64,000 bases of DNA from Yuukianura sp. NJ FZ-2021 (lineage: Eukaryota): assembly GCA_046563655.1 (NCBI GenBank), contig CM102286.1, positions 248,001-312,000 on the forward strand, in the 5' to 3' direction. Positions 44,501 through 64,000 of the stretch are shown here, piece after piece. Numbering within the stretch: the first letter of the stretch is position 1; each line of letters begins with the position of its first letter. Below the pieces are notes generated by a model that made no database searches, was not told where the DNA came from, and was given only the letters and a program-made list of their open reading frames with translations. Position numbers and translations under genes: made by a program.

Positions 44501-45961
44501 TCCCGGTTTCGCAAAACTCCCGGCCAACCTTCCACTCCGGACCAACGTGTTTCGACCGGTTCGTCTCTCCAAACCGACTCTTCGGCTCTCACACATCACT
44601 TTGTCAAAGATGTCGAAAAGGGAGACGGAAGTGCTCGAAGTGACAGTGAACCGGACGCCGGCGGGCATCCTTTGGACACAAAACTCGTCAAAGTGTTTCC
44701 CGCCCTCCCGGCTCCCAAAGTGGACGATTCCAAACCAAAAGCAAAAGGGAAGTGGGGCGCTTTCATGAGTGGGGCAGCGGCGGGTGGGACTCAAAGTTCG
44801 GTGGAATCTTCAGTAGAAAAAGACGACGTGGCTACAGGAGGTCACCCACCACTGACCAGAAAACTAAAAATTCCACCGACTGGCAACGGTGGCAACGGTG
44901 GTGGTGGCAACAAAGTCTTCCCGAAAAAAGGCGGCCCGCCGGTGGTGACAACCGGACGGCAAGAAACAATTGACGAGCTAACAGAAACGGCTTCGACCGG
45001 TTCACCCTCCAAGTCGCCGGAAATAAGTGGTGGGGCGGCGGGGCGAACCCGCCTCCCGCCGCCGCTCATTCCATCCGTGTCGCCCAGTTCGGTTTCGACT
45101 GGATTGACGTTTCAACCAGGGACCATGTCACCCGAATACCAACAAATCATTGCAAACATGCAAGATTTTAAAGTCGATGTCAAGTTGGAAATCCAGAGAT
45201 TGAACCAAAAGATGAACAAGTTGGAGGACTTGCTTGGCGACATTGTGCACAAACTGAATCAACAGTTGAATGGACCCGGTGGGACTAGCAGCGGGGGTGG
45301 GACCAGCATCAGTGTTGTGCCACCAGCATCCACCGGCCCCACCAGTACTTCCGGAGCCACTTATGCTCAGTCCCGCCTCCTCAGTCCCACCAGCCCCTCT
45401 TTTCCAACTAGTCCATTCCATTCTCACTCAGAACGTGACACAAGTCCAGCAAGTGGTGACGAGCGGGGCGACGGTCGCCGGCGACATAGCCACAGTCACC
45501 ATCACAAACACCACAAACACCGTGACCGTGACCGTGACCGTCGAAGAGACTCGAAGAGTTCCAAAGAAAAGACACCCGACACACTTTCTCCGGGAAGTTC
45601 GCGCAAGTCTTCTGCTGATATTCGAAGTCCGAGCCATTCCACTGACCGGGAAAAAAAGCGGGATCGGAAACAGCGGTCGAAAGTTGCTCCGCCTCCTCCA
45701 GCGACCACTTCCAGCAGCAGTACGCATGTCCACGGACATGGTGACCACGGACATGGACATGGTGACCACGGACACGTCCATGGCCATGGACATGGACATG
45801 TCCACCGCGGGTCAACGGCTGACTCGATGAAAGCCATGCTGGAAGAGGAGATAGCGGAGCAGTCGAGTAAGAATTCTTCAGCGGCGGGTTCAAAAGAGCC
45901 GCTCATTCCAGGGAAACCGGGCATTTACCCCACGGGGTCAAGGTCCCACGAATTTCTGTGA
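11543..45961 (+). CDS. eag: Ether-a-go-go voltage-gated potassium channel (KCNH1/5 family), 12 coding exons
   Basis: Exons about 11543-11621 ([22 protein letters not shown]), 20586-20686, 20886-21018, 28650-28796, 29264-29385, 29710-29992, 30065-30177, 31558-31969 (S4 [14 protein letters not shown]; pore SVGFGNVA), 33016-33215, 36826-37078, 43501-43706 (CNBH domain) and 44390-45961. PAS, transmembrane and CNBHD segments closely match insect Eag. The donor at 28796 is the least certain boundary. Confidence 0.96.
11764..11840 (+). mobile_element. tRNA-derived SINE-like element or tRNA pseudogene (copy A)
   Basis: A box GCAGCTCAGTTGGTAGAG, B box GGGTTCAAGTCCC, degenerate anticodon arm and a 3' T-run. 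Confidence 0.6.
12871..12980. repeat. Degenerate tandem repeat with GCGGGAGTTTTT core
   Basis: About 4 units of agag..gcgggagttttt..gaattt. Confidence 0.55.
16105..16404. mobile_element. Foldback/MITE-like element with long imperfect inverted termini
   Basis: Left CCATTGTTCCGAAT..TTCGAAGC is mirrored by right GCTTCGAA..ATTCGGAACAATGG. Inner arms GAATTGTTCCGAAAT / TTTCGGAGCAATTC; AT-rich centre containing TTAGGTTAGG. Confidence 0.7.
19384..19436. repeat. 22-bp tandem repeat, about 2.4 copies
   Basis: ATAACCACCCTAGTAACCACTT repeated. Confidence 0.75.
22764..23138. mobile_element. Non-autonomous hAT-type MITE (375 bp) with 8-bp target-site duplication
   Basis: TIRs CAGGGTTCGC...GCGAACCCTG; subterminal GTTAGAAACG / CGTTTCTAAC repeats; identical AATTAAAT on both flanks (22756-22763 and 23139-23146). 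Confidence 0.88.
25045..25225. repeat. Degenerate minisatellite with AAAGTGGTGGCGCACTATTCTAAA core
   Basis: About 4-5 imperfect units at roughly 40-bp spacing. Confidence 0.6.
26321..26376. repeat. TGTAGCACTGAAA tandem repeat, 4 copies
   Basis: Read directly from the sequence. Confidence 0.75.
30313..30393 (+). mobile_element. tRNA-derived SINE-like element or tRNA pseudogene (copy B)
   Basis: GCCGGATAGCTCAATTGGTAGAG ... CTTCCGGAGT ... GGGTTCGAGTCCCACTCGG plus T-run; anticodon arm not canonical. Confidence 0.65.
33216..33364 (+). repeat. 32-bp tandem repeat starting at the GC splice donor of eag intron 9
   Basis: GCAAGCACAACTCTAAAATTTTACTTTCCCTT at 33216, 33248 and 33280; variant at 33312; partial at 33348. 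Confidence 0.9.
36380..36623. mobile_element. Degenerate MITE-like element
   Basis: Imperfect TIRs CAGTGTTGCTGGA / TTCAGCAACTCTG; internal repeated palindromes TTTCRTCCGGAYGAAA; no matching target-site duplication. Confidence 0.5.
38049..40058 (+). CDS. Intronless divergent ionotropic receptor (IR / variant iGluR-like chemoreceptor), 669 aa, nested in eag intron 10
   Basis: Uninterrupted ORF with a signal peptide; YKFLAC...[12 protein letters not shown] (pre-M1/M1); [14 protein letters not shown] (M2 SxLxxP motif); [13 protein letters not shown]...ITSLFFVFG...FMFELL (final TM). This is the layout of divergent arthropod IRs. Confidence 0.75.
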   Translation: MYRLAFLLALAIAATILPSSCSLVSFSTALVKDFDNCDNFIFFLENNTNKVLDFNQLAQSPVTLISLAVNKQEETTRTIQKLNLTRYSRRLLCHLNIIQLYPTQNWYRKLHSDLRWMYTCEYTSARVGIPYCRGVASHSIWIYEEMLPAKLENYFYYTFQTHYQVQVLNSTYRIHLSIRHPCGTVATAEVANQMIADVSIRHFLELLHHFTISGDVCYNSFMLNKALYDRSVDTNKTIPHRDAFILNQIFAPENHNQSQIFFHSQSWSTLIISISRCSANKSFIGVVNNYNIAQVPFMFNMFNIGRNYHYVTLEAQYKFLACDGAHPYFSLQFYAQPLKADVWISCLITLFAAYTLVEFWFRLNGVTSISSCMFLSTIVFEQELKLPKSKSRTWVFNIFAFTLVFGCFQVTNDYRGMVTSDLTAPLPSQTVETVDQAIQLGFKILTDVSEVSRQELPMAYLKTAHLVNVIAFLTAYKVNEFIADLYNTFVYHVDAQNNSTKQRYQSWMASMHFEFTDNYYDTLLQDFVRCDKRIFIGDLSQLNKFYLRAYRLNPSIEIYYGNESLLKGTLGWTIYSMDEDKDERFHIRFLALQHSGIMQQKYYGDKSKLTLEDFMHRTFKYAPLNLRNSITSLFFVFGACALLAICSFMFELLLTWYFKLKVFWLTVKP

Positions 45962-47707
45962 TATTTTCTCATCTTATTTACTACAATTAGTTTTAATTAC
46001 AATTAATTAACTTAGTCAATTAACTAAGCATTTTGTAGTTAAAGTGGTTAAGTGGATCTTTCATCCTGCTCTTCCTAAAACAATTCCAAAACTTTCAAGT
46101 CCCAAACTGTCCAAAATTTAAAAAACATTTTAAAAAACTTTCTCCTTGAAATTGTTTTTCCTTTTTGCATCAAGACAACAGATTCACCGGATTTTTTGAA
46201 ATAGGAAAAATTTTAAAAAAAGAGAGCGTTTTTTTTGTAAAGCTTTGTTTCTATGAAACCTAATGTAGTTCATCTGTGGAAAGACCAAAGTGATCTCTGG
46301 AGATCATCAGATGATGATGATGATGATGAGGGGAGAGAATGTTCTCTTTTTGCAACTTGACTCCGCAATGCGTAACTTTTTGTTTACAAATTATTCATTC
46401 TGCTCGCTACATTAAAGTGAAATTGACTTCAGAAAGGAAAGTGCCCAACTCTGCTTTCAAATTCCAGTCTGTGCCCAACTTTGCTCTGTCTCAAAATTAG
46501 CAATTCAACTTTTGTTGTTGTTTGAACAGAAATTTTATGTTTTTAGAACAAAGTGGTTTTGTTCTGAACATGGAAAAGTACAAAGTGACATGACAGTGTT
46601 GTGGTAAAAACAAAGTGGATTTTGAAAGAATTAAAGCTCAGTTTATGCCGAGACTTTAATTGTAAAATTTTAATTTCAAAATTTCAAAAAACTCAAACTT
46701 TCACCAGACATTTTATGCCACACGCCGTGTTTTCTTTGTTTCAGTAAATTTTTTAGGCTATAAAGTGTTGCTTTTTATTTGTTGAAAACTAAAACACGCG
46801 GTCGTTTTAAATATTAAATCAGCCTCGCTATAAAACAATTCAAATGTGTAGAAAATTTCACCTGGAAGGTCATAAAAATTTTCAAAAAAAAAGTAATTGT
46901 TGTCAAACAACTTAATGGTGACAGGAACAAAAATTTTACGACTGCAGTTTTTTGAATACAAACAACATGCGTACCCAACTACTAAACATAAAAAAAACAG
47001 TTAATGGACGAACGTTTGATTTATTTTTTGGAACGTTTCAGCTGCGTTTGACATGTTAAAGTTTTACTTTTTACTTTTCAGAAAAAATATGAAGAAAATT
47101 GGTTTTTAGAATTTTTCTTTGCAACTCCAAAAGTTCAAACAGTTTTCTGCCTCTCATTTTTTTCTACATCTATTACAAAATTGGGAAGACGTAATTTGGT
47201 TAAGACGTCAAAGGCTGCTTGTTTGCTTTCTTATTTCGAAAATTTAACAAATTTAAAAAAAAATATGTTTTCATGCAAGGCACTTTTGTCTTTCAAATTC
47301 ATTCCTAAATTTTTCTCTCTTCTTCTTTTCTTTGAATTAAAAATTGGATTTGTTTTAATATGATTTTCAAATTATGATCCATTTGTTCCATGGAAAAGAA
47401 AATTTGAGTCGGCTTTTGGCTTTTTGACTTTCATGTTTGATTATGATCAGAGTTCTTAGACTTTCGGAGGAAGAGAAAAGCCCGCATTCCATCTCTTAAA
47501 CTTTGTCCATTGCCCAACTCTTCTATTGTCAACCTGCACCACCGCCCAACTCTGGAATTTCAATGAAAATTCCACTTCCAGCTCCATTTTGTCCATTTTC
47601 ATCTTCCCTCCTCCTCAGAATAAGAACAGAACAAAAACTTAAGTTTAAACACGGAATGAACCACTCTCTAAATTGTTTGTCTCCCGCCTCCTCATTTTGA
47701 TAGTCCA

Positions 47708-48010
47708 TGCCCCAATTCAGTTTTCTTAACTTTTACTTATGTGTTACAGTACCCCAACTTAATTCTCATAACTTTCAGTTACGTCTCACATTGCCCCAAG
47801 TCAATTTCATTGGCTTTTACTTATGTCTCACGATGCCCCATTTAGTTTTCTTAACTATGTCAGAATTCCCCAATTTTCACTGATTTTTATTTGCGTCTCA
47901 CATTGCCCCCACTTAGTTTCCTTAAATTTTACTTATGCCTAACAATGCCGCATTTTAATTTCCGTAACTTTTACCTGACTCAAAATCCCCCAATTTATTT
48001 TCCATAACTT
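47708..48010. repeat. Degenerate minisatellite, unit about 42 bp, about 8 copies
   Basis: Units resembling TGCCCCA.TT.A.TTTC.TAACTTTTACTTATGTCTCACA. Confidence 0.65.
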
Positions 48011-49578
48011 TGATCATGAATAGTTAAAATCCATTCAACTCCTTCCCGCTTGTCCCCAGACGACAAAACCCTCCTCTTTTTCTTTGAGATTTGAAAATGA
48101 CTGGGATTTTACATTTCCGAGCATAGTCTAAAAGACTATTCCATTATTTCCCGCGTTCCCCATTATTTCCATAACCTAAAGCCTTTCAGAACCTAACATT
48201 AACCTAACCTCAACCTAAAACCTAACATCAACCTTAAGGAGGCACAAGAACATCAGAAGGAAGCCTTAACAAATATTTTTTTCTTGCAACTTTCTCTCTG
48301 TCTGTATAACTGGAATTCACAAAGGAAATTTTTCTCTAGCCGGAGCAAAAAATCAATGTTTTTTCCTACTTTCTTATTTTTTCCATAGAAAATAGCAGAA
48401 AGTCAGGAGGCGGGAGGAGGGTTTAATTTTAAATTCCAATGAAGCGCAGGATATACAAACAAGACTCAACTTTTGTGTACTCTTTGGCCTTACTTTCACA
48501 TTTTTTCCTCTTCCGAAATCCGTTTCCTCAAAACTGGATTTATATTCCATCATGATACGTAAATTTAGACGAGAGAAAAGCCGCTCTTCAAAAGTCTCCA
48601 AAATAAACAATGGAAAGCGTGCAGATGAGAGAGACTTATAATTGCCTTGATTTATGATCTACTTCACACCTCTTTTCTATCCTTTTCACGCTTAAAAGAG
48701 GAACAATTCAATTACAATTTTTCTCGCGACATGATTTCAGTAGCAGCTTTCCTTTTTTTTATTTTGCTCCTACCAGGATTCGAACCCCGAACTTCAATTT
48801 TGGCACAATACACAACTCCCTTTCACTAAAAAGTTACTGGAGCAGAATTGCTTTGTATTTTTGTGTACAGTTTAGCCGGAAATGCAAACAGTGCATAAAT
48901 TCTGTTTGAACTTTCACTTTTCCAATTTTCAGTTTCAGCGAAAACATTTTTCAATTTTTTATACATAACTAGCCTAACCTCACTTTTTAAAATGGCGGTT
49001 ATATTTTGCAAAAAGCACCAAAAATAGTTGAAAAGTGTTGCAATTTGTAAAATTATAGACTTTGGAAGTTGTATTGGCGTTGTGTTACAAAAAGTTACAA
49101 TTTCCTTCTCACCCTTAATTCGAATCTTCCGCTTTGATGGAAATGAAGTATCGATTGTGGAAATTGAAAAAGAGAAAGTGAAAATAAGCGTCTTAAATTT
49201 AACAGCTTCCGAAGTATCTCTGAATATCTAATCTCGTAAGTTTCTCAAAAGTGGAGTTTGTACCTGTCTCGGGGCAAAGTGAAACTTACTTTTCCTGCTC
49301 ATTAGAAGGAGCAGTGGGGCTTAAACTCAAATCCATCGACTTAAAACTTCTTCCACTTGTTCAAATAAAGTTTATGCAAAAGTTGAAGTGGAGCACAGAT
49401 ATGATTTACTCCTTATCGGTGTCTTCAAACTAGAAAGTTCAAGAAGTTTAAACTTATTCTCGCTCTAACTTATTTCTGTCTCACTTTGCCCCAATTTCCC
49501 TGGGACAACTTGAGAATCAGCTGATAATTTGAATTTCACACCTCGAACCCGCTCAAAATTTAATATTTTGCAAATAGA

Positions 49579-49656
49579 GCCCGATAGCTCGATTGGTAGA
49601 GCCTTTTCCGGAGTATGGAGATGTGGGTTCGAGTCCCACTCGGTTCTTAATTTTTT
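49579..49656 (+). mobile_element. tRNA-derived SINE-like element or tRNA pseudogene (copy C)
   Basis: GCCCGATAGCTCGATTGGTAGAGC ... TTCCGGAGT ... GTGGGTTCGAGTCCCACTCGG plus T-run; clearly homologous to the copy at 30313. Confidence 0.65.
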
Positions 49657-51110
49657 AAGTGCAGTTTCATTTTTTGTTTCTCATACCATGTAACTGAACC
49701 TCACAGTTTTCTCATTATAACTATCTTAGTATTCAATCGTGTAAACTAACCTAATTTAATTGAAGTTGAGTAATTAAATTAGGTTGGTTGAGTCAAAGTG
49801 ACGTTGTTTCTGAGAATTTTGGAAGTTATGTTAAGTTATGTCCGTTTTGAGTTATGGTTAGGTGGGTTAAGAGTTATGGTGAGAAGAAAACTTAAGGGCG
49901 GGAACTTATAAATTTTGAAAAGTGGAAAATGGATGGCACTCTCCTCCTCCTTTGTTTTCTTGTTGATGAAACGGAAAAGAGAGAAGAAAAGAGACATGGT
50001 TTCTCTCCTTTGTGTTTCCATTGAGAGCGCCAAGATTTGAAGGAGTGACAATAGGAATATTTCCGTCTTTTGTTACTTACCTACCGACTTCCTTCGTTCT
50101 CCAACTTAAATGTGAGAGAAAGCAGGAAATTCAGTCTGTTTGAGAGGGAAATTGTATTTCAAAAGTTTGTGGCTCACCAACTTTTGAATTTTCAAATTCT
50201 CTCCCACGTAAACTTTGGATTTTAAGGCAAAAGAGGCATTCTGTCTCCCCTCGTCCTGGAAAAAGCGCGTCAGAATTCAAATTCAAAATTTAAATCAATT
50301 AGAATGGAAACTAAAAAGTTCTTTTCAAATTTCAAAATTTCGAAACCTCCTAAAGCCATTCGGCTGTTCCAAATAATTTCCAAAAACTAAATGTGAATCA
50401 AAGAACCACATATCAACTAAAACCTAATAATAAACATTTGTAATAAAATACACAAGTTTAGTCACACCATAAAAGACATTTTGAAACTGCGCACGCGTAT
50501 AAGATATTAAACTTTTAGTGTAATACCGTAAGTTACATAAATCCGTGTTTTAATTCAAAATTTGTAACTTTTCCCGCCATTTCCTGTTTTTTCAATTCCT
50601 CTACTTTGGCGATTCAGTTTCAGAGTTTTAGTAGGGGCAGGTTGAGACAAAATTAAAACTGAAGCTATAAAAAGAAAGTAGAAATGAGCTGGAAGAGGTC
50701 AAAGGTCAAAGGAGATTATAGTCTAAATAGTTGTAGTGAAGATGTGAACCTGAAATCCTTATTAGGTTATACTCCTAAACCTAATCATTTACACTCATTG
50801 TGTTACTAGCATAATAAAATCATGGTATGGATTTAAGTCTTGTTATACTAAATGTGATTTCTCCTGTCCGTAATACTATTTCGATATTTAGTCAAACTGT
50901 AAAACATCGTAAAATAATGTTTCAGATTTTTTGGTCTGGTTCATGCGATCAACAATTATTATTAATAACAATAATAATAATTATAATAAATAAATAAATA
51001 AAACAGACACGAACAGTCAATCCCGGTTTTACAAATATCCAATCAACACATTATTAAATCCGTTCGGTGTTAAAGGCAGGATTTGAAATCAGGAAGGTTG
51101 TAACTGGGAA

Positions 51111-51195
51111 CTGTGTAGCTTAATGGTGAGAGCGATTACCTCAAAAGTGTGGATGTGGTTTCGAGTCCTACTCCAGCCATGATTTGTTTTTTTTC
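51111..51195 (+). mobile_element. More diverged tRNA-derived repeat (copy D)
   Basis: GTAGCTTAATGGTGAGAGC ... GATGTGGTTTCGAGTCCTACTC plus T-run. Confidence 0.45.
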
Positions 51196-53178
51196 CTTTC
51201 TTGCAAAAATGTCTTTCTGTGCATAGATTTCAAAATGTTCAAAAGCGATAGGTTTTACCACATTTTCAAGTTTCTTGAGCTAAGAATGAGAAGTTGGGAG
51301 TTGATTATAATGAAAATTGATACTTTACAAGTTTGGGCAGGAAGTGTCGTCGTTTGAATTGGGAATTGGCGGGTTGTAAGACCTTGGTGTAAGATGCTGT
51401 TGGTGAGATAATGAAATCTGGGCAGAATGAATTATGTTAAAGCCTTGTCAATGAAGTTAGAATCTCGTGGAGGATAAAATGGCTCAGTGCCTCTCTGAAG
51501 ATTACTTTCTAAAAAGTTCAATTTCCCGCCTAGTCATGGGAGCAGCAACGTTCAAAACGGGCGTGGTGAAAGCCAAAGCACCAATTTTCACTTTTGTTCA
51601 CATCTCATCACTTTCTCTTTTGTCACACCTTTCTCCCCAAATCTCCCCCCATGGTACTTTAGCCCCTCTCCCAGCTGAAACCAACCAGAACTGGGTTCAT
51701 TTTCACTCTGAACCCTAATTGACCCGCCAAAAATCCATGGGTTTTGAAAAAACCCGCCAAAGACTTTTTTCAAAAAAGAGCTCAATGTTGGTTCTGGCTC
51801 ATTTTGGTTGTTAGTTTGGCCCATCCATCATCTTGTGGGCTCAACCCGCCTTTCAAAATAAAACTGCTCAAGTGCGTTGGCCTTTGCTGTGATGATTTAA
51901 TTATAAGCTAGGCTTGTACATGAGAAAACTGGAGAAAACTTTCGTTTTTCTTGTTTTCACTTTCTTACTTCATTTTTCAATTTTGAAAGTGAATAACGTT
52001 TTTTTTGAAAGTTAAGAACAATTTTTTCTTTGGAAGAGGAAGTATAGGTTATTATGAAACTAGAGCTTAGAATCCATAGAGATACTCCATTTTTTTTTAG
52101 GACTCAAAATTGAGAAGTTGCGTTTCACTTGTGATCTTTTTTGATTTCAAAAGTTGTGACATTCATGTGACAAAACACAAAGGACGATGGAGATGGGAGC
52201 AGCAGGTGGAGCCAGTTTCAAAATTCAAAAGATTCTTTCCCGCAAAAATTTTGAAAGAGAAAGCTTTCTTTCTCTTTTGAGTTGAAATTTCCCACCGTTC
52301 GCTTCACTTTGTCTGGTTGTTCTTCTGGTGGCTCAGCCCCACCCGAATCAAGAGCCACCGCAAGAGAGAGAGAATGGACCACATGTTGAGTTTTTCCTTC
52401 ACTGCTCTCGCACTTTCTCCATGCTTCCCTGATTTTTCATAAATCTCTCACACCGCGAATTTTTCAAATTTTTCACTCTCTTCTAAAATTCAATTTGAGA
52501 AAAAAGTTCATTTTGTGTCAAAACTTTCCAGGAATTTCTCTGTCAAGAAATTTTACTTTTTATAACATTTCAGAAACTGTGGAACGCCACAAGTTTTTGA
52601 AAGATTGAAATTTTCTGTATTTGCCGGGAGGTCAATGACCTTTGGTCTTCTCGTCCACTTAGAATCTTAGTTTGAGACATGTAGAAATCCTACCGACAGG
52701 CGTTCAAATCCAATTGAATGCAACTTTTTTTTCCTTTTGCTCATGAATCTCCTGCTCCACTTACCCAGCCCAAAAAATGTGAACTTTTGAAGGGAGAGGC
52801 TGGTGGTGAATGGAAATGGGTCTCTGAGGAGCCAGAGATCTCGACAAGATCGCCACACGACGTCTTCTGCCTCTTTTGCTCTTCTGCTCGTGTGTCAATG
52901 CCAAGAGAGTAGCCTTCTGTAATGTAATGGGATTCAACCATGTCTGAGAAGATCCAAAGTCTCACGATGCCCCATCTTGTCCACTTTCTCTCCAAAAGCT
53001 TCTGGAGAACACAAATCTCCAGATGCATCTCTTCTCACTAAAACGACCACCGACATTTGAAACTTTAAGCAACCACGACCACTACACGCCTTTCTCTAAA
53101 GAAAAAAAAACTAGTTTTGTTTATTAAAAAATTGAAGAAAAAGTAAAATTTAAAAAAAAAAGTCACAAAAATATTTAT

Positions 53179-53664
53179 ATAGTTACTCCCTCCAATCTTG
53201 TTTTCTAATACAAGTTATTCCTTTTAACTCTCATGTTTTATTATGATCTCATGATAAGATTTGTATCGATTTGTAGTTACTCCCTCCGCTGACCTGTGTT
53301 ACTTCCTCCCGTACTTGTATTTTTTGTCAAAAACTCAAACCAAAGTAGGTTGAAGTATTTCTACAATAGTTACTCCCTCTACTCCAATCCCATAGTTGCA
53401 ATGTTTCTAAAATAGTTACTCCCTCCATTCTTTCCATAGTTGTAGTCTTATAAAAAAGTTACCCCCTCTCATCTTCTTAGTGTTGCTAAAATAGTTACTC
53501 CCTCTCCTATTCTTAGCTTTTCTAACATAAGTTACTTCCTTCCATGGCTGTGTTTCTAGAATAGTTACTCCCTCTGCTCAATTCTATAGTTGCACCGTTT
53601 CTAAAATAGTTACTCCCTCCACTTTGCTTGTAGTTGTAATGTTTCTAGAATAGTTGCTCCCTCC
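53179..53664. repeat. Array of about 12 TTTCTA(A/G)AATAGTTACTCCCTC cores with variable spacers
   Basis: Cores near 53179, 53274, 53358, 53404, 53456, 53486, 53520, 53553, 53598 and 53642, plus degenerate ones. Confidence 0.8.
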
Positions 53665-54126
53665 ATTTATGTGGAACCAGGTTGAGGATGAGGTTGATGG
53701 GAATTGGAGTTGCTGGTGGTGGTTGTGGCGGGAGAAATAAGTTAAAATTATATGAGTGAATTAGGGTGCGTGGGTGGTTGCGGAACATTTTCCCAGAGGG
53801 AGCCTCACTTGTTGTTTTAATCCAATGAACTCAGCCATCTCTTCCATAATGCAGTTGGAATGAATCTCAATCCGACGGATCCAGGGATGAGCCTCTCCCT
53901 TTCAAAATGCCAGTAGAAGGGGGAATAGGAATCTCGTGCGAAAAACCGCAAAAACCTCATAAGGTTTTGCAAGACCCTGCACCAAACCCCAAGAGCTATT
54001 TTGCGCATAATAAAATTTCGATTGTAGCTAGATTTCGTTCATTCTAACAATTATTTTTTAACACATAAATACCTGATACTTATTTATTGTTCGTATAACT
54101 AAAATAATTAATGCCATAAAATAAAG

Positions 54127-54639
54127 CAACACGAATGCGTTAAGGAACAGAAGAGAAAATTCTCGAAAGTTCTTTAGCAAAATAACATTTTATTATTTAT
54201 AATAAAAATCATCAAGATAGCAACTACGAGAGCTACCGGCACCATATTTAGTTTAACATTTTTACGAGCTTTACATTATACGAATGACGTTCACTCTTTC
54301 AAGTTTCAAGCTTCGATTAGTGATGGGTTAAAAAGCAACAAGATTTTGTTTTCACTAATTTCTTGAATTTACTTTACCATATGATTCTAAATGAGGCTTA
54401 GCCTTAGTATCTAAATCATCTAAATTTTGAAGCTTGTCACGTAAATTTAAAAAAAATTATAATTGTTCAACACGAATGCGTTAAGGAACAGAAGAGAAAA
54501 TTCTCGAAAGTTCTTTAGCAAAATAACATTTTATTATTTATAATAAAAATCATCAAGATAGCAACTACGAGAGCTACCGGCACCATATTTAGTTTAACAT
54601 TTTTACGAGCTTTACATTATACGAATGACGTTCACTCTT
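54127..54639. repeat. Perfect 172-bp direct repeat pair upstream of the polymerase gene
   Basis: 54127-54298 is identical to 54468-54639 (CAACACGAATGCG...GTTCACTCTT), separated by a 169-bp unique spacer. Confidence 0.92.
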
Positions 54640-54772
54640 AGGGGCGCACCATGCTTTATATCAATAGAACAGTTCGAAAATTTTTACTCTACTTCATCAT
54701 TTATTAAGTGGTTGTTGTCCTAAGAGGTTGTTACACACTATTGTCTTTAAATTGTCGCTATTGTTCTAAACA

Positions 54773-57700
54773 ATGTCAAAGCGCTCAGGCTCCCCAATTG
54801 CTGGACCATCTAGGAAACTCTTTAACTGCATTCTGTGCGGTCATGGATTTACCTCTCGACCATTGTTGAAATTACATTTTGACACTGTTCATAAAAACTG
54901 TCTTGAACCAGCACCACCAGGCTGTGATGTCACGAACGAGGGTGTTCTACAGGAATATCACCATTTGTTCTGTCGAACATGTGGACTTCCATTTAATTGT
55001 CGGAATAAACTTCAAGAACATTTCTACACAACTCATCCAGACTTCAACATTCAAGATGGCGGAGGAGTGTCAACTGATCCAATAACTGTGAAACTAGTGC
55101 TGGAATCTCTAAAAATGAGTCGCAAGTACATGGCAGACTTTGATACATTTCCATGTGGTGAAGGTGTCGACGAGAGGGATTTCTTCGCAAATGTTAAACT
55201 ATCATCTTACGATGTCATCAGCGAAGATATCTCCAGATGGAAGAACTTGAGAATATTTTTTACCTTGGGGTGCCACTTCACCAAAACACACGCAGATGGA
55301 ACGGTTGAAACAAAGGATGCAGGATTTACTTCATTTCGACACCTTGTCTTCAATGAAAACTTGTTATCTAAAGTTTGGTCAGTCATGTGCAGTCAAATGT
55401 CAGATCAAATTGAAGACTTTACAAACGATGGTAGCGGCTGGACTCTTGAGTACATTCAGAAATTTGGATTTGTCACTTCAAAATATCAATTCACCAAGAT
55501 TGGAACATACATGGAGACCCCATATCCACTTTCAACTCACAGAACACTGTTAAACATTGACAATAGTGAAGTGGCAGTCGACAATTCCCACAACAAGTGT
55601 TTTATATGGTCTGTGCTTGCGCATGAGAATATCGGAGGATTATCTGTCAAAACAAAAAGATACAGAGGACACGTCGATAAGCTTGTAAAAACCTACAAGA
55701 CAAACGAGTACATCTTGAACACCAAAGGACTTCATTTCCCGATGACTATGGAGCAGATTCCCCACTTTGAAGAACTCAACCCGAACATTTCTTTAACCGT
55801 TCTTGGTTATGACATGGATGGGTCGATACCACCGAAGTTGAGCAAAATTGAATCATTCAATTTTATACAAAGCAAGATCTCAATACTGTACAACTCTCAA
55901 TGCACAAAGGAAATACATGTTGATCTCATGTGTCTAATGGAGGGAAACAATGGTCACTTCATACTCATTAGAAGTCTTGAAGCACTAATGAGGGCACCAA
56001 ATGTACATACAACCCTGCACATCTGTCGAAACTGTCTCTCCAATTTTCAATCATCTCAAACTCTTCAACAACACATCAAGTATTGCGCTTCATTAGATCT
56101 TCAAAAAGTTGTATATCCCGCCAACAATAAGCTGACCTTCAACAAGTGGGAGAGGACTCAACCAGTACCATTTCGATTCTACGCGGACTTTGAAGCTTTC
56201 CTCCCAAAGTTTAATCCCTCAACTATAGAAGAGGAGGAGCGCCGACAACTCAAAGAAAAAATACGTGGAAGACCAGTTCAGCCTGTGAATAAGTGTTGCA
56301 CTCACCTACACAAGCCATGTGGATATGCATGGGTTTGCGTAGACTTCAATGGAAAACGACGACATGGCGAATATTATCATATCACCAGCGATGACGAAGA
56401 CGTTGCTGCCAAATTTATTCATAGCATCACAGAGTACTCCAAAACACTGGAAGAGGAAGTTAGGTACTATGAAAAAATTGCACCAGACATGCTAAATCTG
56501 ACTCCAGCGCAGAGAAGTGCTGCTGCCCTGGAAAAAAATTGCTGTTTCTGCAAGAAGACATTGGACGGGACCAAAGTGCGACATCATTCACACCTTCCAC
56601 CGTTCAACTACATCGGGATGGCTCACCAAGACTGCAATTTACTAGGAAAAATCAAAAAAGAGTTTCCAGTCTTTATGCATAACTTTTCATCGTACGATGT
56701 GCACTTCATCGTTCAATCCCTTGGAAAACTACGAGAGGACGGAATCATCAAGGATATATCAGTAATTCCGAAAAGCAGCGAAAAATACCTTTGTCTAACT
56801 CTCGTTCCTGGCTACCATGATGACGATGATGATGATGGGAACGATGGGCCTTGGAGAAAAAAACCATTCAAACTAAGATTTACAGACAGTCTTGGATTTA
56901 CACTGAAATCCTTAGACAAATTAGTGAAAGTGATGCGAGCTGATCCCACTGCTAAATTTCCAATCACAAGACAAGAGTTTGCACAACACGATGGCATTGA
57001 ACTTCTCTTCAACAAAGGAGCTTATCCTTATTCTCTCATGAAGTCTTGTAAGGATTTCAAAATCAAAAAACTACCTGCCAAAGAAGATTTCTACAATGAC
57101 TTGACAGAGTCACACATTGACCATAAATTGTACGAGCACGCTCAAAAAGTCTGGAAGAACTTCAACATTCAAGACATGGGAGATTGGCATGACTTATACG
57201 TCAGACTAGATGTATCGCTTCTGGCTGATGTGATGGAAGGAATCCGAAAAATAATGTTTGATGCTTACGAATTGGATCTGGCCCATTATTTCTCTTTACC
57301 AATGATGGCAATGGATTGCGTTCTCAAGAAATCAGGAGTGGAATTGGAGCTAATCACAGATCCAACTATGCATTGCTGGCTGGAGCATGCTATTAGAGGT
57401 AAAACCTAAAAATGTGAAACTGGTAGACATTTTTGATTCATTTTATTGGTAGGTGGATACGTTAGCGTTGGATCCATGCGAGAAGCTAGAGCGAACAACA
57501 AGTACATGGGAGATGAGTTCAATCCAGAGGAAGACACAAGTTACATAATTTACATTGATGCCAATAACCTTTACGTAAGTGTAAAATGTATAATTGAACA
57601 AGTTCACTGAATAAGAGTAATTTAACTTCTAGGGTAAAAGCATGAGTCTGCTTCTTCCAACTGGAGAATTTCGATGGTTAACAGAAGAGGAGCTGATGAC

Positions 57701-59039
57701 AATTCAAGAAAATGATTTTATCATGGATGATGAGAAAGGATACATGCTTGAAGTGGATTTGGAAATTGACCCTTCCTTGCATGACAAACTTAATGATTAT
57801 CCTCCAGCCCCGATTACCCGTACAGTTGCGCAGAATGAGTTATCCCATCACCAGTTACATTTGTCGGAAAAACTCAACACAGGGCCCGGAATTTTCAAAG
57901 TGAAGAAACTTGTGGCAGATCTAAACAATAAGAAGAATTATATTCTACATCATGCCATTTTGATGGAGTACATGAAGCTTGGAGTTAAAGTTACAAAACT
58001 TCACCGTGGAATTTCCTTTACTCAGAGGGCATGGATGAAAGACTTTATAGATTTTAACACCGAAATGAGAAAGATGGCGACATCAGACTTTGAAAAGGAT
58101 TACTGGAAAACTCTCAACAACAACTCGGCATTCGGAAAAACAATTGAACAAGTTCGCAAACGTCAAAATGTTCGTATCGTCACATCCATGGAAGAAGCTC
58201 TACGTTACAACAAGAAACCCACTGTCCAGAATGTCATACCAATTAACGAGTCAACATGCATCTTTATGATGAAGAGACTTCAAGTCACTTTAAACAAGCC
58301 AATATATACGGGCGTCACAGTGCTTGAGCTAGCAAAGAGCATCATGTATCGACATCATTATACGATACAAGCCAAATACGGCATCGAGAAGTGCCGCCTT
58401 ATTTATACTGATACAGGTAAATGTCGTACTATCCTTACTTTAAACTAAAGCTAATTTTAGACTAATTTTAAACAAAAGCTAACGTTTATTTCAGATTCCT
58501 TCATCTATCACATCCAAACTGATGACGTTTATCAAGACATGCTCCAAGACAAGGACTTGTATGACATGAGCGAATATGAATCCGATCATCCAATTTTTGG
58601 AGAGTTTCACGACCCTACAAACAAGAAAGTTTTGGGAAAATTCAAAGATGAAGCTGCCGGTTCGGTAATCACTCATGTTGTTTGTCCTCGTCCAAAAATG
58701 TATACCATCAGATCCTTAAAGCTTCAAGTATACAAAGGATTTGATGGAACAAATATTTACCAAAAGAAGACTGATGGAAGCTGGTTCATCAAAGACGAAT
58801 ACACGAAGAAGGTCAAAGGAATAACTAAAACAGCTGTAAACAACCAAATTGCATATGAAGATTTTGAGAAAGTCCTTAAAGAAGACGTTCAAACTCGGGT
58901 ATGGATGAGAGGATTTAGAAGCGTAGAGCATAGAATTTTCACAGAAGTAACGTTAAAAAGGGCTCTGAACGGTTTAGATACAAAACGTTATGGAGTTAAT
59001 AGAATTAACACATTAGCCTTTGGACATCGTAACATTTAA
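54773..59039 (+). CDS. Protein-primed family-B DNA polymerase (Polinton/Maverick type), 4 exons, 1358 aa
   Basis: Exons 54773-57398, 57453-57574, 57633-58416 and 58495-59039 total 4077 nt in frame. ExoI YADFE, ExoII HNFSSYD, ExoIII YVRLDV. Splicing rebuilds IRGG, motif A YIDANNLYGKSMS and motif C YTDTDS. Motif B K..NNNSAFGK, GKFKDE, PKMY, KVKGI. N-terminal C2H2 fingers and an endonuclease-VII-like insert. Confidence 0.92.
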
Positions 59040-59782
59040 GAATATATATAAAAAATATTCCTTTGTCATAATTTCTGTAATTAAACCTTGGAGTGAGTTT
59101 ATTCCGATGAAGAGAAATATAAAACATTACGGAATGAGTCACAAAATTCTTCGAAAACCGCTTCGTTTTAAACGTAATTGTTCATCATAATTTCTGTCAA
59201 TAATGTAGTGACGGACCGGTTAAGGGTTACAGGAGTTAGAAGTTACAGTACGAATTACAGAACACATTACCTTTGGGCTACCGTTACGTTTTTTTTTTCA
59301 AAAAAAAATGTGGTTGACATCATTTGTGTAAAAGTCAGAGTGAATTTTCGAATCTAAAAAAAAATATTGAATATTACGGAAAAAACAAAATGTACACATT
59401 AGCCTTCTTTGGTTAAAATAACTATTTGTCATTAATTTCTGTAAATAAAGCTTTCAGTGAATTTGGTAGTTGCAGTTTTTTATTGTAACTTTTACATTAA
59501 TTTCATACAGCGAACTCTTTCGATGCTGTCAACAAATCTTTGAAAATTAAAGATCTTCTCTCAATCGTTCAAGATTTTGTGCATTCTCCTGAAATTGTTA
59601 TAGGTTATGAACTATACATATATATGCTAATATGGGTCATGAACTATAGTTAGTAAAAATACTTTTTTTTTGTAAATCATTGTCTTTCAAGAAATAAAAG
59701 TTATAAACCTAAATAATGCTCCAAAGAATTTATTTCAATCAAGAAGGATATGAAACTGACGAATTTTAGGAAAGTAAAGTTT

Positions 59783-60573
59783 CTATAATTCGGAAATCTC
59801 AAACTTCTTCATCAGATTCTCCATGATGGTGACGAAGTTTAATGTTTCATCACGTGTCCAAAAGATCAATGGTCCTAAAAACAAATAAATAAATTTTTTA
59901 AACTGAATTCGAATTGTTATCCCCTTTTAAATAATTCAATACCAATGTAATTCGCAAATCGTGATTCCTCAAGTATTGGCGAATTCAGATGCATTTGAAG
60001 ACGAGAATATCTCCCCCGGATCATTCTCATCCTCGCCGTTTTTGAGGTGGTTGTGAAGACGCTAGGATCACCCCAGAATCCGGAATCCTTAGGATTGATT
60101 TTATCAACAAAGACCGGCTGCGAGTCAATCGTATCCATTGTCTTTTTGACAAACTTCAGGATTTCTGGGATTTCCTTAGCGATGAAATGTAAAACCGTCG
60201 GCGAGAAGTTTGGATAGCTTTTCCGCACATATACCTTGAAACCTGCAAATATATATATTTCTAATATATTGTACAATCTATATATATATATATATATATA
60301 TAATCGCATGACATAATAATAAAATGAAAAAAAAAGACATACATTGTTGCAAGTCATCAAACCCCAATCTGCAAACACAATCTGTGCCAATGCTGTGAGT
60401 CAAATCATTCTGTCCGAAAAACTTATCATTTCCAGGAGTATAAACGTCTCGTGCAGCAGTTTCCAAATAGTTTTGTGCATTCCCTATTGTTTTAAAAAAA
60501 AAAAAAAATGTTATTATGAATACATAGTGACTCAAAACTCAATACTCCTATGTGACTTACCTTGTTCAGACAT
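59783..60573 (-). CDS. Spliced orphan gene, 181 aa, unknown function
   Basis: Exons 60573-60561, 60483-60343, 60242-59943 and 59874-59783 (546 nt) join in frame through three phase-1 GT-AG introns: MSEQGNAQNYLETAARDVY...LQQCFKVYVRKSY...NYIGPLIFWTRDETLNF...FEISEL*. TATA and TCAGT lie upstream. Confidence 0.7.
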
Positions 60574-60648
60574 TTTACTGATGTGAAGATACTTGTCAAA
60601 TGTATCTTTATATAAGACATTGATTGATGGGACATTAAGTGTACTAGT

Positions 60649-60695
60649 TAGACATTAAAGTAGTACGTCAAATTAGTGTACTAATTTAATGTCTA
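60649..60695. other. 18-bp inverted repeat (hairpin) in divergent intergenic region
   Basis: TAGACATTAAAGTAGTAC, 11-nt loop, GTACTAATTTAATGTCTA; 17 of 18 positions pair. Confidence 0.75.
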
Positions 60696-60723
60696 GTCAG
60701 AATAATTGATTTGACCGTCTAGA

Positions 60724-60875
60724 ACATCCGACTGTCTGGAACATCTAACAGTTTGAAAATCTGGTAGTGGCGGTTTGAAGATGGATTTCCAATTAATTCC
60801 ACATCTGGCTGTCTGGAACATCTAACAATTTGAAAATCTGGGGGTGGTGTCAAGATGGATTTCCAATTAATTCCA
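60724..60875. repeat. Two tandem copies of a unit of about 77 bp
   Basis: ACATC.G.CTGTCTGGAACATCTAACA.TTTGAAAATCTGG...AAGATGGATTTCCAATTAATTCC at 60724 and 60801. Confidence 0.85.
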
Positions 60876-60925
60876 ATCAAAAAACTTGCATAAATTGAAA
60901 GCATTTCAGTACGGCATCAGGAATA

Positions 60926-61405
60926 ATGAACTACACAATTTCGGGTATAGGCGGATTCAGTAAGGTTGGGTTTTCCAACTCTGGAAATCCTGAGGAAATA
61001 CTTGTAGCAGAAAAAATAGATCAGCCTGTAGCTCTCATTAAGTTTGACATTGCGCTGTGGAAGAAGTACAGCCCGCGAATTTACCAACGTCAGCAGCGCA
61101 TGTTATCTAAGGCATTCACAGAGTTCGCCGACTATTTTGCAATGAGTTGCACGAAAGTTGGATCTGAATATATCTTCTCGTCTCATCCATTTACAACATT
61201 TGAAAATTCGAAGGAAGCGAACGATTTCATGCACACTACATTGGGTATGATCTACGAACGTAATGGAGACATCGCTGACTCCTTCGCTCAGCACTGTGTG
61301 GAATTCATCACCAACGAGAACTCTATGGATATGAAATGGGTTTTCCCAGATTTCATTATTTCTCAAATCAAAAAAGCTGCAGACAAGCAGAAGGTAAGAA
61401 GATAG
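60926..61405 (+). CDS. Orphan protein, about 156-159 aa, paralogue of 62752-63264
   Basis: Open frame with clear end-to-end similarity to the 170-aa ORF. A possible intron 61394-61470 (AAG|GTAAGA...TTTAG|TGA) would move the stop to 61473. Confidence 0.75.
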   Translation: MNYTISGIGGFSKVGFSNSGNPEEILVAEKIDQPVALIKFDIALWKKYSPRIYQRQQRMLSKAFTEFADYFAMSCTKVGSEYIFSSHPFTTFENSKEANDFMHTTLGMIYERNGDIADSFAQHCVEFITNENSMDMKWVFPDFIISQIKKAADKQKVRR

Positions 61406-62089
61406 GTTGTCATTATTACTGTTCCTATCTATTTCTTACATTGTTTTTATTTTTTTTTTTTGTTCTTTAGTGAGTCTGAGGAGTACATCCACTGGTGTCA
61501 ACACATCCAAAATCCGTTAATGAAAACTTATTTCTGATTTGGTTAATTCATAAGCCTAAGTGTTGAATGATACACACAAGAAAATTCGGATGATGAATAA
61601 AAATTTAGCAGAAGCATAAATTCTTTATTTTCAACGTTTGAATGTTTGAGTATTTTGTTAATCAATTTGTCAGTTTCGTTAAAACATGGAATAGGATTGC
61701 AAATCCTTCAGCAATCGTCTACATTAGTGAAGTTTTCAATCATACACATGTTTTCCTAAAATATATAAATAAAAACAGCAGAAAACAGGTTTTTTTTTTT
61801 TTGTATTGTTCAAACACTAAATAGAAATTTTTAATCGGGAATTTAAAATCTTAAATATGAAATAAGCTCTTGTTCACCCTCTTCAGGAACTGTGTGTGTA
61901 TTCTGTTTTGTATGAACCCCATTGTAGACTACTAGGAGGAACTCTCACTCAGCAGTGTGAAAGAAAGAAAGACACCCACAGCTCCAATTTAGAGCTAACG
62001 AACTCTAATTCATTTCTTCATGTTTATTCAAAACAATTCTATTTGTTTCATGTTCAAAAAAAAACCATGTTGAATTTGACATTATCTTT

Positions 62090-62548
62090 TCACTCACTAT
62101 CCGAATAATACGTATAGTAGTAATCAAAGAGTTGTGGATGTGATAGTGAAGATTTACAGTCCAAGAGGGTTAGCTCATTGTTGATATAATCATGGTATGA
62201 ATTATCAAGCAGCTCAGCCAAGCAGGTAGTAGTTACAGCATGATCAGAGGATTTTCCAAAAATTGCAGTTGCTAAGTCATCAAACTTGCTGCCAAAGAAT
62301 TGAATAAGGTAGAGACGAAAGTATTTCTGCCATTCTCTTTGAGTGTTCTGAAATAAAATGTTAGATTGCTGTGAAAGAAGTACTCGAGCGGCAGAAAGTC
62401 GAACACAATTAAAGAAGAAAACACGAGCGTATTCCCAGTTTTGGATCTTTGCAGAATCAGTAAGTGGATATGTGTGCTTTATTTTCTGAAATACTTTTCT
62501 AATTATCTTAACAACACATTTGTCTGACGGAGAACCGTATGGTGCCAT
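62090..62548 (-). CDS. Orphan protein, 152 aa
   Basis: ATG in AAAATGG context, long open frame in AT-rich DNA, with TATAAAT (62635-62629) and TCAGTT (62605-62600) upstream. Confidence 0.6.
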   Translation of the reverse strand: MAPYGSPSDKCVVKIIRKVFQKIKHTYPLTDSAKIQNWEYARVFFFNCVRLSAARVLLSQQSNILFQNTQREWQKYFRLYLIQFFGSKFDDLATAIFGKSSDHAVTTTCLAELLDNSYHDYINNELTLLDCKSSLSHPQLFDYYYTYYSDSE

Positions 62549-62751
62549 TTTTTCCTCCTAAGTCTGATTTTTGGTATTTGGATTTGACTTTTTGTTGGGA
62601 ACTGACTCGGTACTAGTCCACTGACTCCATTTATAAACATGCTGAAAGAGGGCGGGGAGTGAATGCTAACTTCTCAAGCGACACCTAAAAATTCAGAAAA
62701 AAAATTAACTTGCAGAATTAACAAAGAAACTTATTTTTGTACCTTACGACG

Positions 62752-63264
62752 TCATTGGTGATTAAGATGTTCTAGAATGATCTCCTTCCATTTTTTGGTT
62801 GATTTTATCATCATAAACACAAAGTCTGCAAATATACGTTTTATGTCAAAAATGTTCACGCCAAAGTTTGCAACACAGTGTCGTGCAAAGTCGTCAGCGA
62901 TATTTCTTGCATCCTCAGAAGCCATGCATATTATAGTATGCATGGCTTTGGTTGCCTGTGTTGAGCTGTCAAACTGCATGACGGGAGCTAGCACATGTCC
63001 CTCAAAAATAATGCCAGCGCCAACTTTCGTGCAACATATTTTGAAGTAATCGGTGAATTCTGAAAATGCCCTTTTCAGATGCATCCTTTGGGGCCCGCTC
63101 AGTGTCCAACACCACTTTTCGTAAAGTTCATCGTTAAATATAATTAACTTTGTTGGTTCACCTACTGCACTTTCGATAAGTTTTAAAATTTCTTTAGAGT
63201 CGGTAAGACTGGTTTCACCAATCTTTGCCGCGCCGTCTGGTGTGCTGATGGAGTAGGAGTTCAT
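62752..63264 (-). CDS. Orphan protein, 170 aa, paralogue of 60926-61405
   Basis: Shares AFxEFxDYFxxxCTKVG, MHT, IADxFAxHCV and FxDF blocks with the plus-strand paralogue. TATAAG and TCAGT lie upstream. Confidence 0.78.
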   Translation of the reverse strand: MNSYSISTPDGAAKIGETSLTDSKEILKLIESAVGEPTKLIIFNDELYEKWCWTLSGPQRMHLKRAFSEFTDYFKICCTKVGAGIIFEGHVLAPVMQFDSSTQATKAMHTIICMASEDARNIADDFARHCVANFGVNIFDIKRIFADFVFMMIKSTKKWKEIILEHLNHQ

Positions 63265-63767
63265 TTTGTTAGACTGATGAACGTAAGGAAATCCAAAAGT
63301 TCCTTATAAGTCATTTTTAAATTGAGTTAACTGCATGATCTTCAGCAGAGAATATCTCTAAGTCACCAAATCCCACAAGTTTTTAACTGGTTAAATTAAA
63401 AACCTCTGGAAGATGTCCTTTTGCCTTTTTGCGTTTGCCTTAATGTCTCACTTTTTAATTGAGTTAATTAAAATGAATTCAGTAAAGTTAAAAAGTCCAC
63501 CAAAATCCCGTAGGATTTAGATTATTATAGCCTTGAGACAAGTCTCCTAATTTCTGAGTTTTTAATTGTCTTAATCAGTGACTTCAGCAAAATCGCCTAA
63601 AATAATTGTTGTGAAAGCCATTGCGTCTACCAATGAAATTGTGGTCAACTATGGCGAAGACGTTAGACCTACACAAAACGACATTAGGTGTCAACGCTTT
63701 ATTACTTAAGTCAAGTTGATCCATCTCCAACACATTTGATTTTGACACTGTAGACATTCACTATACT

Positions 63768-63986
63768 TTGTCATTTCAAAATTCCGAAGTCTCAATTTTG
63801 TCCATGCTAGCAATGGAACAAGGAATTATTTCCGCAATTCTTGCTCTTCAAGAGGAATTAGTTCAGTTACGAATGCAACTGAGAGACACCACTAGAGACC
63901 TTTATAACACCAAGGAATCACTTTACAAACTGAGAACTGTAGTCTTAGAAAAAGAGAACGAAATTACAGTTTTCAAGCAAGAGTAA
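63768..63986 (+). CDS. Coiled-coil-like ORF or exon, probably incomplete
   Basis: Heptad-like LQEELVQLRMQLRDTTRDLYNTKESLYKL; ends at a GTAAG donor-like site near the window edge; start uncertain. Confidence 0.4.
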   Translation: MSFQNSEVSILSMLAMEQGIISAILALQEELVQLRMQLRDTTRDLYNTKESLYKLRTVVLEKENEITVFKQE

Positions 63987-64000
63987 GCATTTCCATTGTA

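Follow-up and report, generated by a model that had tools for sequence, protein, structure and literature searches.

Polinton/Maverick elements encode a protein-primed family B DNA polymerase (pPolB), in which the order of domains is described as a terminal protein (TP, or D1), a viral OTU-like cysteine protease (vOTU), an exonuclease and the polymerase proper, with a D1 domain that resembles the little finger (LF/PAD) (PMC11161782). The catalytic residues of the vOTU are reported as lost in bidnavirids and adenovirids (PMC11161782). The PolB of the Bidnaviridae is also described as Polinton-derived, with a fused N-terminal priming domain, in viruses that lack an integrase (PMC4061559). Intact vertebrate Mavericks are reported to be intronless (PMC8097293), and Polinton-like proviruses of dinoflagellates are said to bear introner-type elements in some cases (PMC11957031). 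The Polintons of nematodes and other invertebrates are presented as having multi-copy pPolB genes, in a survey described as counting integrase-linked polymerases only (PMC10748475); no publication on unlinked or "solo" animal pPolB genes was found among titles and the opening lines of abstracts. A pPolB gene that appears to stand alone occurs at positions 54773-59039 (plus strand) of a stretch of 64,000 nucleotides from Yuukianura sp. NJ FZ-2021 (GCA_046563655.1, contig CM102286.1, 248,001 to 312,000; hereafter the window). The original prediction took this gene and the small genes beside it for a cassette belonging to an undescribed endogenous DNA virus or giant transposon. As analyzed here, the locus presents a polymerase of a known family in uncommon surroundings and is not demonstrably a new virus: it is probably a solitary, stranded copy of a Polinton/Maverick (adintovirus-type) pPolB that lies beside unrelated orphan genes.

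In the gene, the long frame at 54770-57409 joins with three pieces that are read in different frames, giving four exons (54773-57398, 57453-57574, 57633-58416 and 58495-59039, the last including the stop). After splicing, the coding sequence (CDS) has 4077 nt and encodes 1358 amino acids (aa), with no internal stop among the 1358 codons, and the four pieces together span positions 74-1241 of the 1244 in the polymerase hidden Markov model (HMM). Host-like introns had been proposed from the letters alone, and the three that are found are short and canonical: intron 1 (57399-57452, 54 nt, phase 1, GTAAAA..TAG), intron 2 (57575-57632, 58 nt, phase 0, GTAAGT..TAG) and intron 3 (58417-58494, 78 nt, phase 1, GTAAAT..CAG). 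Introns 2 and 3 cut motif A (DANNLY/G, the slash marking the intron) and motif C (YTDT/DS) exactly. This precise placement speaks strongly for genuine introns and against decay.

The encoded protein shares with the Polinton/Maverick (adintovirus-type) pPolB, as that polymerase is characterized in PMC11161782, the order of the domains, the Cys and His of the OTU, and the exonuclease and polymerase motifs. The folds were assigned on an AlphaFold2 model of the exon-1 product (residues 1-879; 22-sequence alignment; predicted local distance difference test, pLDDT, 70.1), which was searched against all PDB representatives. The D1/TP-like domain (55109-55492, plus strand; residues 114-241) has the predicted fold of the Y-family little finger (PAD): 114 residues align to the PAD of Pol eta (2r8j_A) with a VIA-align Z of 8.5 and a root-mean-square deviation of 3.5, followed by at least 10 further Y-family rows. 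The vOTU (55523-55984, plus strand; residues 252-405) aligns best with the OTU of Kupe virus (6oar_A, Z 6.7), reaches Z 5.4-6.7 over about 15 OTU entries and also matches OTUD1 and nairovirus OTUs (Z 6.0-6.5). Its catalytic Cys (in NKCF; C277) and His (in GHF; H396) are present, and neither varies among the 22 aligned sequences. The DEDD 3'-5' exonuclease (56162-56893, plus strand; residues 465-708; ExoI YADFE, ExoII HNFSSYD) aligns with residues 5-123 of the phi29 DNA polymerase (1xhx_A, Z 8.3), and D473, E475, N638 and D643 are invariant in the same alignment. The palm, fingers and thumb region (57453-59036, plus strand) carries motif A (DANNLYG), motif B (NSAFGK), motif C (YTDTDS) and KFKDE, and is covered by pieces of the polymerase HMM at E 1.6e-13, 2e-89 and 1.1e-46. 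Among predicted viral structures the top match is a protein of Drosophila-associated adintovirus 2 (E 4e-28), and the best matches comprise adintovirus, MELD-virus, bidnavirus-like and adenovirus polymerases; a Foldseek search of the 879-residue model against PDB gives nothing at E ≤ 0.001. The viral or Polinton origin first proposed for the polymerase is thus upheld by domain order, motifs and viral structure matches, and the model and motifs present it as a bona fide Polinton/adintovirus-type pPolB that is apparently functional.

Upstream of D1 the protein begins with two C2H2 zinc fingers (C-x2-C-x12-H-x4-H; 54821-55033, plus strand; residues 18-41 and 68-88 of exon 1). The pattern is visible in the translation, and the Pfam zinc-finger matches are sub-threshold only. 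Fingers of this kind also occur in the clade members P0005, P0006 and L013 (see below), and they are not unique to them, as the matching protein of Drosophila-associated adintovirus 2 is annotated as containing a C2H2-type domain. Multi-C2H2 genes stand separate in two Polinton-like contigs (L001 1909-3087 and L030 15792-16514), whereas the fingers are fused to the polymerase in the window's clade. Sequence searches of PDB return C2H2-finger proteins only, with weak E-values for P0001 and 2e-7 (PRDM9) with the A1 profile. When the translations of the three large polymerase exons are scanned separately against Pfam, DNA_pol_B_2 (PF03175) remains unmatched even at E ≤ 10; no family appears at E ≤ 0.01, and the relaxed threshold of E ≤ 10 yields sub-threshold zinc fingers only. 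Because PF03175 also misses 12 of 12 polymerases of integrase-linked loci (at 1e-5), this reflects a limit of the Pfam model and not a peculiarity of the gene.

A word-indexed protein search recovers 280 relatives of the polymerase. The best are P0005 (44% identity) and P0006 (36%); most others have about 30% identity and about 1250 aa, and annotated spider and leafhopper proteins are among them. Many arthropod relatives (e.g., P0014, P0030, P0031 and P0110) have a precomputed Endonuclease_7 domain (PF02945) that does not occur in the window's polymerase, and these relatives form clusters of up to 313 near-identical members. An IMG/VR scan with the single protein as query gives nothing and tblastn finds no match in phage records. 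Alignment scans provide 92 related loci, 12 from IMG/VR and 80 from metagenomes, the latter being the best 80 kept from a scan in which 513 of 599 matched stretches were confirmed. For linkage counts two duplicates are dropped (L028 = L007, L012 = L009), leaving 90 loci. The long related loci are typical Polintons: according to Pfam, applied to 112 open reading frames (ORFs) of 12 such loci, an rve integrase directly follows the polymerase in 8, Pox_A32 is present in 8 and a double jelly-roll (DJR) capsid in one. In 20 of the 27 rve-bearing loci the integrase starts at most 800 nt downstream of the polymerase. Where at least 6 kb of flank is available, 18 of 22 loci bear at least one of rve, A32 and capsid (the exceptions are L011, L022, L035 and L055), which makes the window locus atypical. 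A FastTree phylogeny was built on 361 profile columns from the 73 sequences that remained of 75 after removal of duplicates and of rows in which gaps exceed 30%. In this tree the window's polymerase nests among integrase-linked polymerases. Together with P0005, L013, P0006 and L015 it forms one long-branch clade with support 1.0, and the sister pair of this clade includes L041, which bears both rve and A32.

Unlike a whole Polinton/Maverick, the polymerase of the window stands without an integrase, an ATPase, a capsid gene or a terminal inverted repeat (TIR) in the window, and it has three spliceosomal introns. A rve integrase profile, built from 8 related loci and matching 27 related loci at E < 1e-5, has no match in the six frames of the window at E ≤ 10. 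The same is true, over the same 64 kb and at the same threshold, of an A32/FtsK-like packaging ATPase profile, which has many matches in related loci, and of a DJR major capsid profile applied to the six frames (jackhmmer, seeded with the Pfam-confirmed DJR ORF of L004; 17 ORF matches in related loci). None of the 107 ORFs of at least 46 aa in 46000-54772 and 59000-64000 matches Pfam at E ≤ 0.001, so that the small genes are indeed unmatched to the Polinton core, as had been suspected. Neither an adenain-like protease nor a minor capsid (penton) occurs among these Pfam-scanned flank ORFs, no dedicated profile having been built for either, and parvoviral domains (capsid, NS1/SF3 helicase) are equally missing from them by Pfam. 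A TIR whose left end was placed at 53.9-54.3 kb is not found in the window: inverted or direct alignments of 53.7-54.8 kb with 62.6-64.0 kb do not rise above shuffled controls, and a BLAST comparison of 46-64 kb with the window itself recovers local repeats only. When 153 flank ORFs of at least 40 aa are compared with the ORFs of the 92 related loci there is no credible match, the single one having E 0.008 and 19% over 62 aa. The other Polinton hallmarks are thus absent within 54 kb upstream and 5 kb downstream of the polymerase. Intact vertebrate Mavericks, as described in PMC8097293, have a polymerase of the same superfamily; the gene of the window instead has introns and no detectable ends. 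Since integrase, packaging ATPase, capsid and TIR are lacking at the locus, we infer that it is unable to move or replicate alone. Any enzyme expressed from it could serve, at best, in trans, for copies at other sites of the genome that bear ends. One of several related copies may have become stranded here through a partial insertion, a deletion, a rearrangement or a segmental duplication.

A hint of several copies comes from the DNA contigs of four runs, of which X1, X2 and X4 derive from one sample and X3 from organism B, which is about 4% diverged from the window in its host part. At sites in the polymerase CDS, 7-13 distinct contigs per run bear the variant letter, vs. 1-3 at flank sites, and the contigs over the polymerase range from 99% to below 90% identity. 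This pile-up and the spread of identities suggest that several diverged copies of the polymerase exist in the sample and also in the second organism, in line with the multi-copy pPolB genes reported for invertebrate Polintons (PMC10748475). The variant sites of the pile-up span about 54.97-58.85 kb and do not extend to the small genes; all other listed variant sites lie at 46.0-46.7 and 63.4-63.5 kb, within the host flanks. Organism B has essentially no cover over 59.3-62.7 kb, and no contig among those listed bridges the block of 54.0-63.3 kb. Joints that connect 46689 and 51602 with 59289/59290 have a support of 18-21 letters, located at a T/A run, and are treated as spurious.

Short GT..AG introns also occur in related polymerases on metagenome contigs (L013 2819-2870; L015 about 2925-2990; L041 about 5915-5985; L066 about 2065-2140). 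L013 has a phase-1 intron at most one codon from intron 1 of the window, in the motif IRGG/Y, and an extra intron in motif B that is absent from the window; conversely, intron 3 of the window is absent from L013. In L015, L041 and L066 the introns lie at three different points in motif A, all at most about 5 codons from intron 2 of the window, which hints at a hotspot of intron gain or sliding. The intron positions are thus mostly lineage-specific, which suggests that the clade has long evolved as nuclear-spliced genes. The G+C content at third codon positions (GC3) separates neither the polymerase nor the small genes from host exons.

Downstream of the polymerase, the small genes D, A, C, B and E follow position 59039. 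The packing of the polymerase and at least five small genes on both strands, which the original prediction had pointed out, is therefore confirmed, and the region 59040-64000 contains 4 ORFs of at least 150 aa, vs. a mean of 0.003 in shuffled sequence, where 0 of 300 shuffles reach 4. Gene D (minus strand; 60573-60561, 60483-60343 and 60242-59917) has three exons and encodes 159 aa, with donors GTAAGT and GTATGT and acceptors ..ATAG and ..GCAG. Among the GT/AG combinations scanned it is the only one that opens a frame of more than 140 aa, and both introns are needed. Genes A (60926-61405, plus strand, 159 aa) and B (62752-63264, minus strand, 170 aa) are paralogues, with 37% identity over 153 aa (E 1e-28) and a common MN-Y-IS start. 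Gene C (62090-62548, minus strand, 152 aa) comes about 200 nt after B. The first exon of gene E (63804-64000, plus strand) is coiled-coil-like and has a GTAAGC donor at 63983, and the gene continues past the window. Genes A, C and D have no Pfam match and gene E has sub-threshold Pfam matches only; gene A also lacks a usable Atlas match. A word-indexed search of 5.8 billion proteins finds no relative of A and B, and A, B and C have no relatives in IMG/VR. The sole profile match to A and B among 1.84 billion representatives, P0245 (E 1.7e-7), is a subtilase of bacterial origin in which Big_7 is repeated six times, and is therefore judged a repeat-summed false positive. An AlphaFold2 model of A and B, based on a two-row alignment, reaches a pLDDT of 45.8, too poor for a fold search. 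For gene C the Atlas offers a lead to DDE_1-containing clusters (0.88), which lies below the meaningful level. The small genes look like lineage-restricted host-style genes, with nothing tying them to a virus, and it is most likely by chance that they lie near the polymerase.

Repeats and a hairpin had also been noted in this region, and they are real. A perfect pair of 172-nt direct repeats (54127-54298 and 54468-54639; blastn 172/172, 100% identity) lies upstream of the polymerase; the copies are 169 nt apart and end 134 nt before its ATG, and they correspond to a 341-nt unit that is duplicated in tandem and present about 1.5 times. Genes D and A are divergent, and the 350 nt that separate them contain a hairpin with 18 paired bases (60649-60695), for which the DNA fold has -15.8 kcal/mol and a z of -4.6, and 0 of 200 shuffles fold as well. 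Just upstream of gene A there is a tandem repeat of two units of about 75 nt (60724-60875), which are 87-91% alike (blastn 87% over 78 nt). Some short stretches from the 3' end of the polymerase seem to recur about 370 nt further on, but they fall short of a blastn E of 1e-4 and were dropped.

The host setting of the polymerase is ordinary chromosomal DNA of an invertebrate, with a G+C content of 33-50% in the window. Exons of MCM5 (1.8-3.3 kb, minus strand) and of an ABC transporter (5.6-7.7 kb) are followed by a long potassium-channel-like gene, the last exon of which (44390-45961, plus strand) is histidine-rich. The MCM5 exon has at most 80% identity to diverse invertebrates (79% to Daphnia, 78% to a hemichordate). 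The histidine-rich exon is of low complexity, with long His-Gly and His-rich runs, and has 55% G+C vs. 33-41% in the rest of the window. Inside the span of the channel-like gene, 38031-40058 (plus strand) holds an unbroken ORF of 675 aa with a signal-like N-terminal segment and hydrophobic stretches, for which no Pfam family is found at E ≤ 0.1. The stretch of about 8 kb before the polymerase is gene-free, as first described: 46000-54772 has no stop-to-stop ORF of at least 150 aa and no Pfam match. It includes a tRNA-like sequence (49578-49647, plus strand) that scores 30.1 bits vs. the Rfam gathering score of 29 and is not called by ARAGORN. The summed contig depth in the surrounding bin (49337-50003) is far above that of its surroundings, and positions 49618-49656 gather dozens of loose read ends. 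The tRNA-like sequence is probably the head of a tRNA-derived short interspersed nuclear element (SINE). Closer to the polymerase, 53160-53667 is an array of at least 7 copies of a motif of about 37 nt, with the core AATAGTTACTCCCTCC; its minus-strand GGSNY reading shifts frame, which makes a minisatellite likelier than a coding repeat.

Several observations weigh against a solitary, stranded copy. The window's sequence downstream of the polymerase amounts to 4.96 kb only, and among the related loci rve lies about 2.9 kb downstream in two and 3.9-7.0 kb upstream in three, so that core genes may lie in a module further off, past 64000. The window's own clade has no member with a demonstrated integrase, the downstream flanks of L013 and L015 being only 931 and 5 nt long. 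A fragment long dead would not be expected to keep an intact frame of 1358 aa and every motif, which argues for youth or selection. Finally, the summed contig depth at 54006-54672 and 59342-63343 is 2-40 times below that of both flanks in X1, X2 and X4. A block of about 9 kb (54.0-63.3 kb) that contains the polymerase and the small genes and is haplotype-specific or highly divergent could explain this; the signal is to be read as a hint, since contig depth is a poor measure and is not copy number. These points bear on the possibility that the polymerase belongs with the orphan genes to a single unusual mobile element or endogenous virus, of which they would form either the left part or all, and which would be capsid-less or have its core genes beyond 64000. 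The polymerase is of viral type and intact, unmatched orphans are packed beside it, and the lower depth over 54.0-54.7 and 59.3-63.3 kb is at least weakly suggestive. However, a single new virus or giant transposon, as initially envisaged, finds in the window neither core genes nor a TIR nor a flanking direct repeat. Nor does any of the 153 flank ORFs credibly match an ORF of the 92 loci, relatives in IMG/VR are missing, and variant contigs pile up over the polymerase CDS only and not over the small genes. In addition, the genes are spaced by 200-900 nt and have divergent promoters, unlike the tight packing of related viral contigs. Such a composite element is therefore unlikely.

The intactness of the frame without partner genes is also what would be seen if the polymerase belonged to a Polinton-derived gene family retained by the host, domesticated or under selection, with a cellular or defensive role. 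The short introns of host type and a GC3 like that of host exons agree with this, and the clade members' own short introns suggest a long residence as nuclear genes. On the other hand, an active repeat family would better account for the several diverged copies that the sample seems to contain, and Polinton-like proviruses of protists are also reported to have introns (PMC11957031); retention by the host is likewise improbable. An endogenous bidnavirus-like element, that is, a parvovirus-derived one with a captured Polinton polymerase and no integrase, could draw on the bidnavirus-like polymerases labelled "densovirus/parvoviridae sp.", which count among the top matches by structure (E 1e-25 to 1e-20), and on the lack of an integrase that is described for bidnaviruses (PMC4061559). 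Unlike in the Bidnaviridae, though, the vOTU Cys and His are present and invariant here, while the bidnavirid vOTU is reported as inactivated (PMC11161782), and no parvoviral NS1/SF3 helicase or capsid gene is found in the flank ORFs and no TIR in the window, which makes this origin very improbable. A broader view would take the window's clade (its own polymerase, P0005, L013, P0006 and L015) as an intron-bearing, zinc-finger-tipped TP-vOTU-pPolB lineage that persists and multiplies in invertebrate genomes without an integrase or a capsid. Two forms of it are conceivable: a minimal, polymerase-only self-synthesizing element, here in a haplotype-specific block of about 9 kb with orphan cargo, or a polymerase family kept by the host. 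This view is quite unlikely as well, and a solitary, stranded pPolB copy remains the probable reading of the locus.

Because surveys usually count integrase-linked polymerases only, as is described for the invertebrate Polintons (e.g., PMC10748475), unlinked intact copies are overlooked. An intact, spliced TP-vOTU-pPolB gene that stands alone could represent debris of recent origin, a helper that serves defective elements in trans, or a gene retained by the host. If it is true that the whole clade lacks integrases, this would bear on how self-synthesizing elements persist with a minimal gene set.

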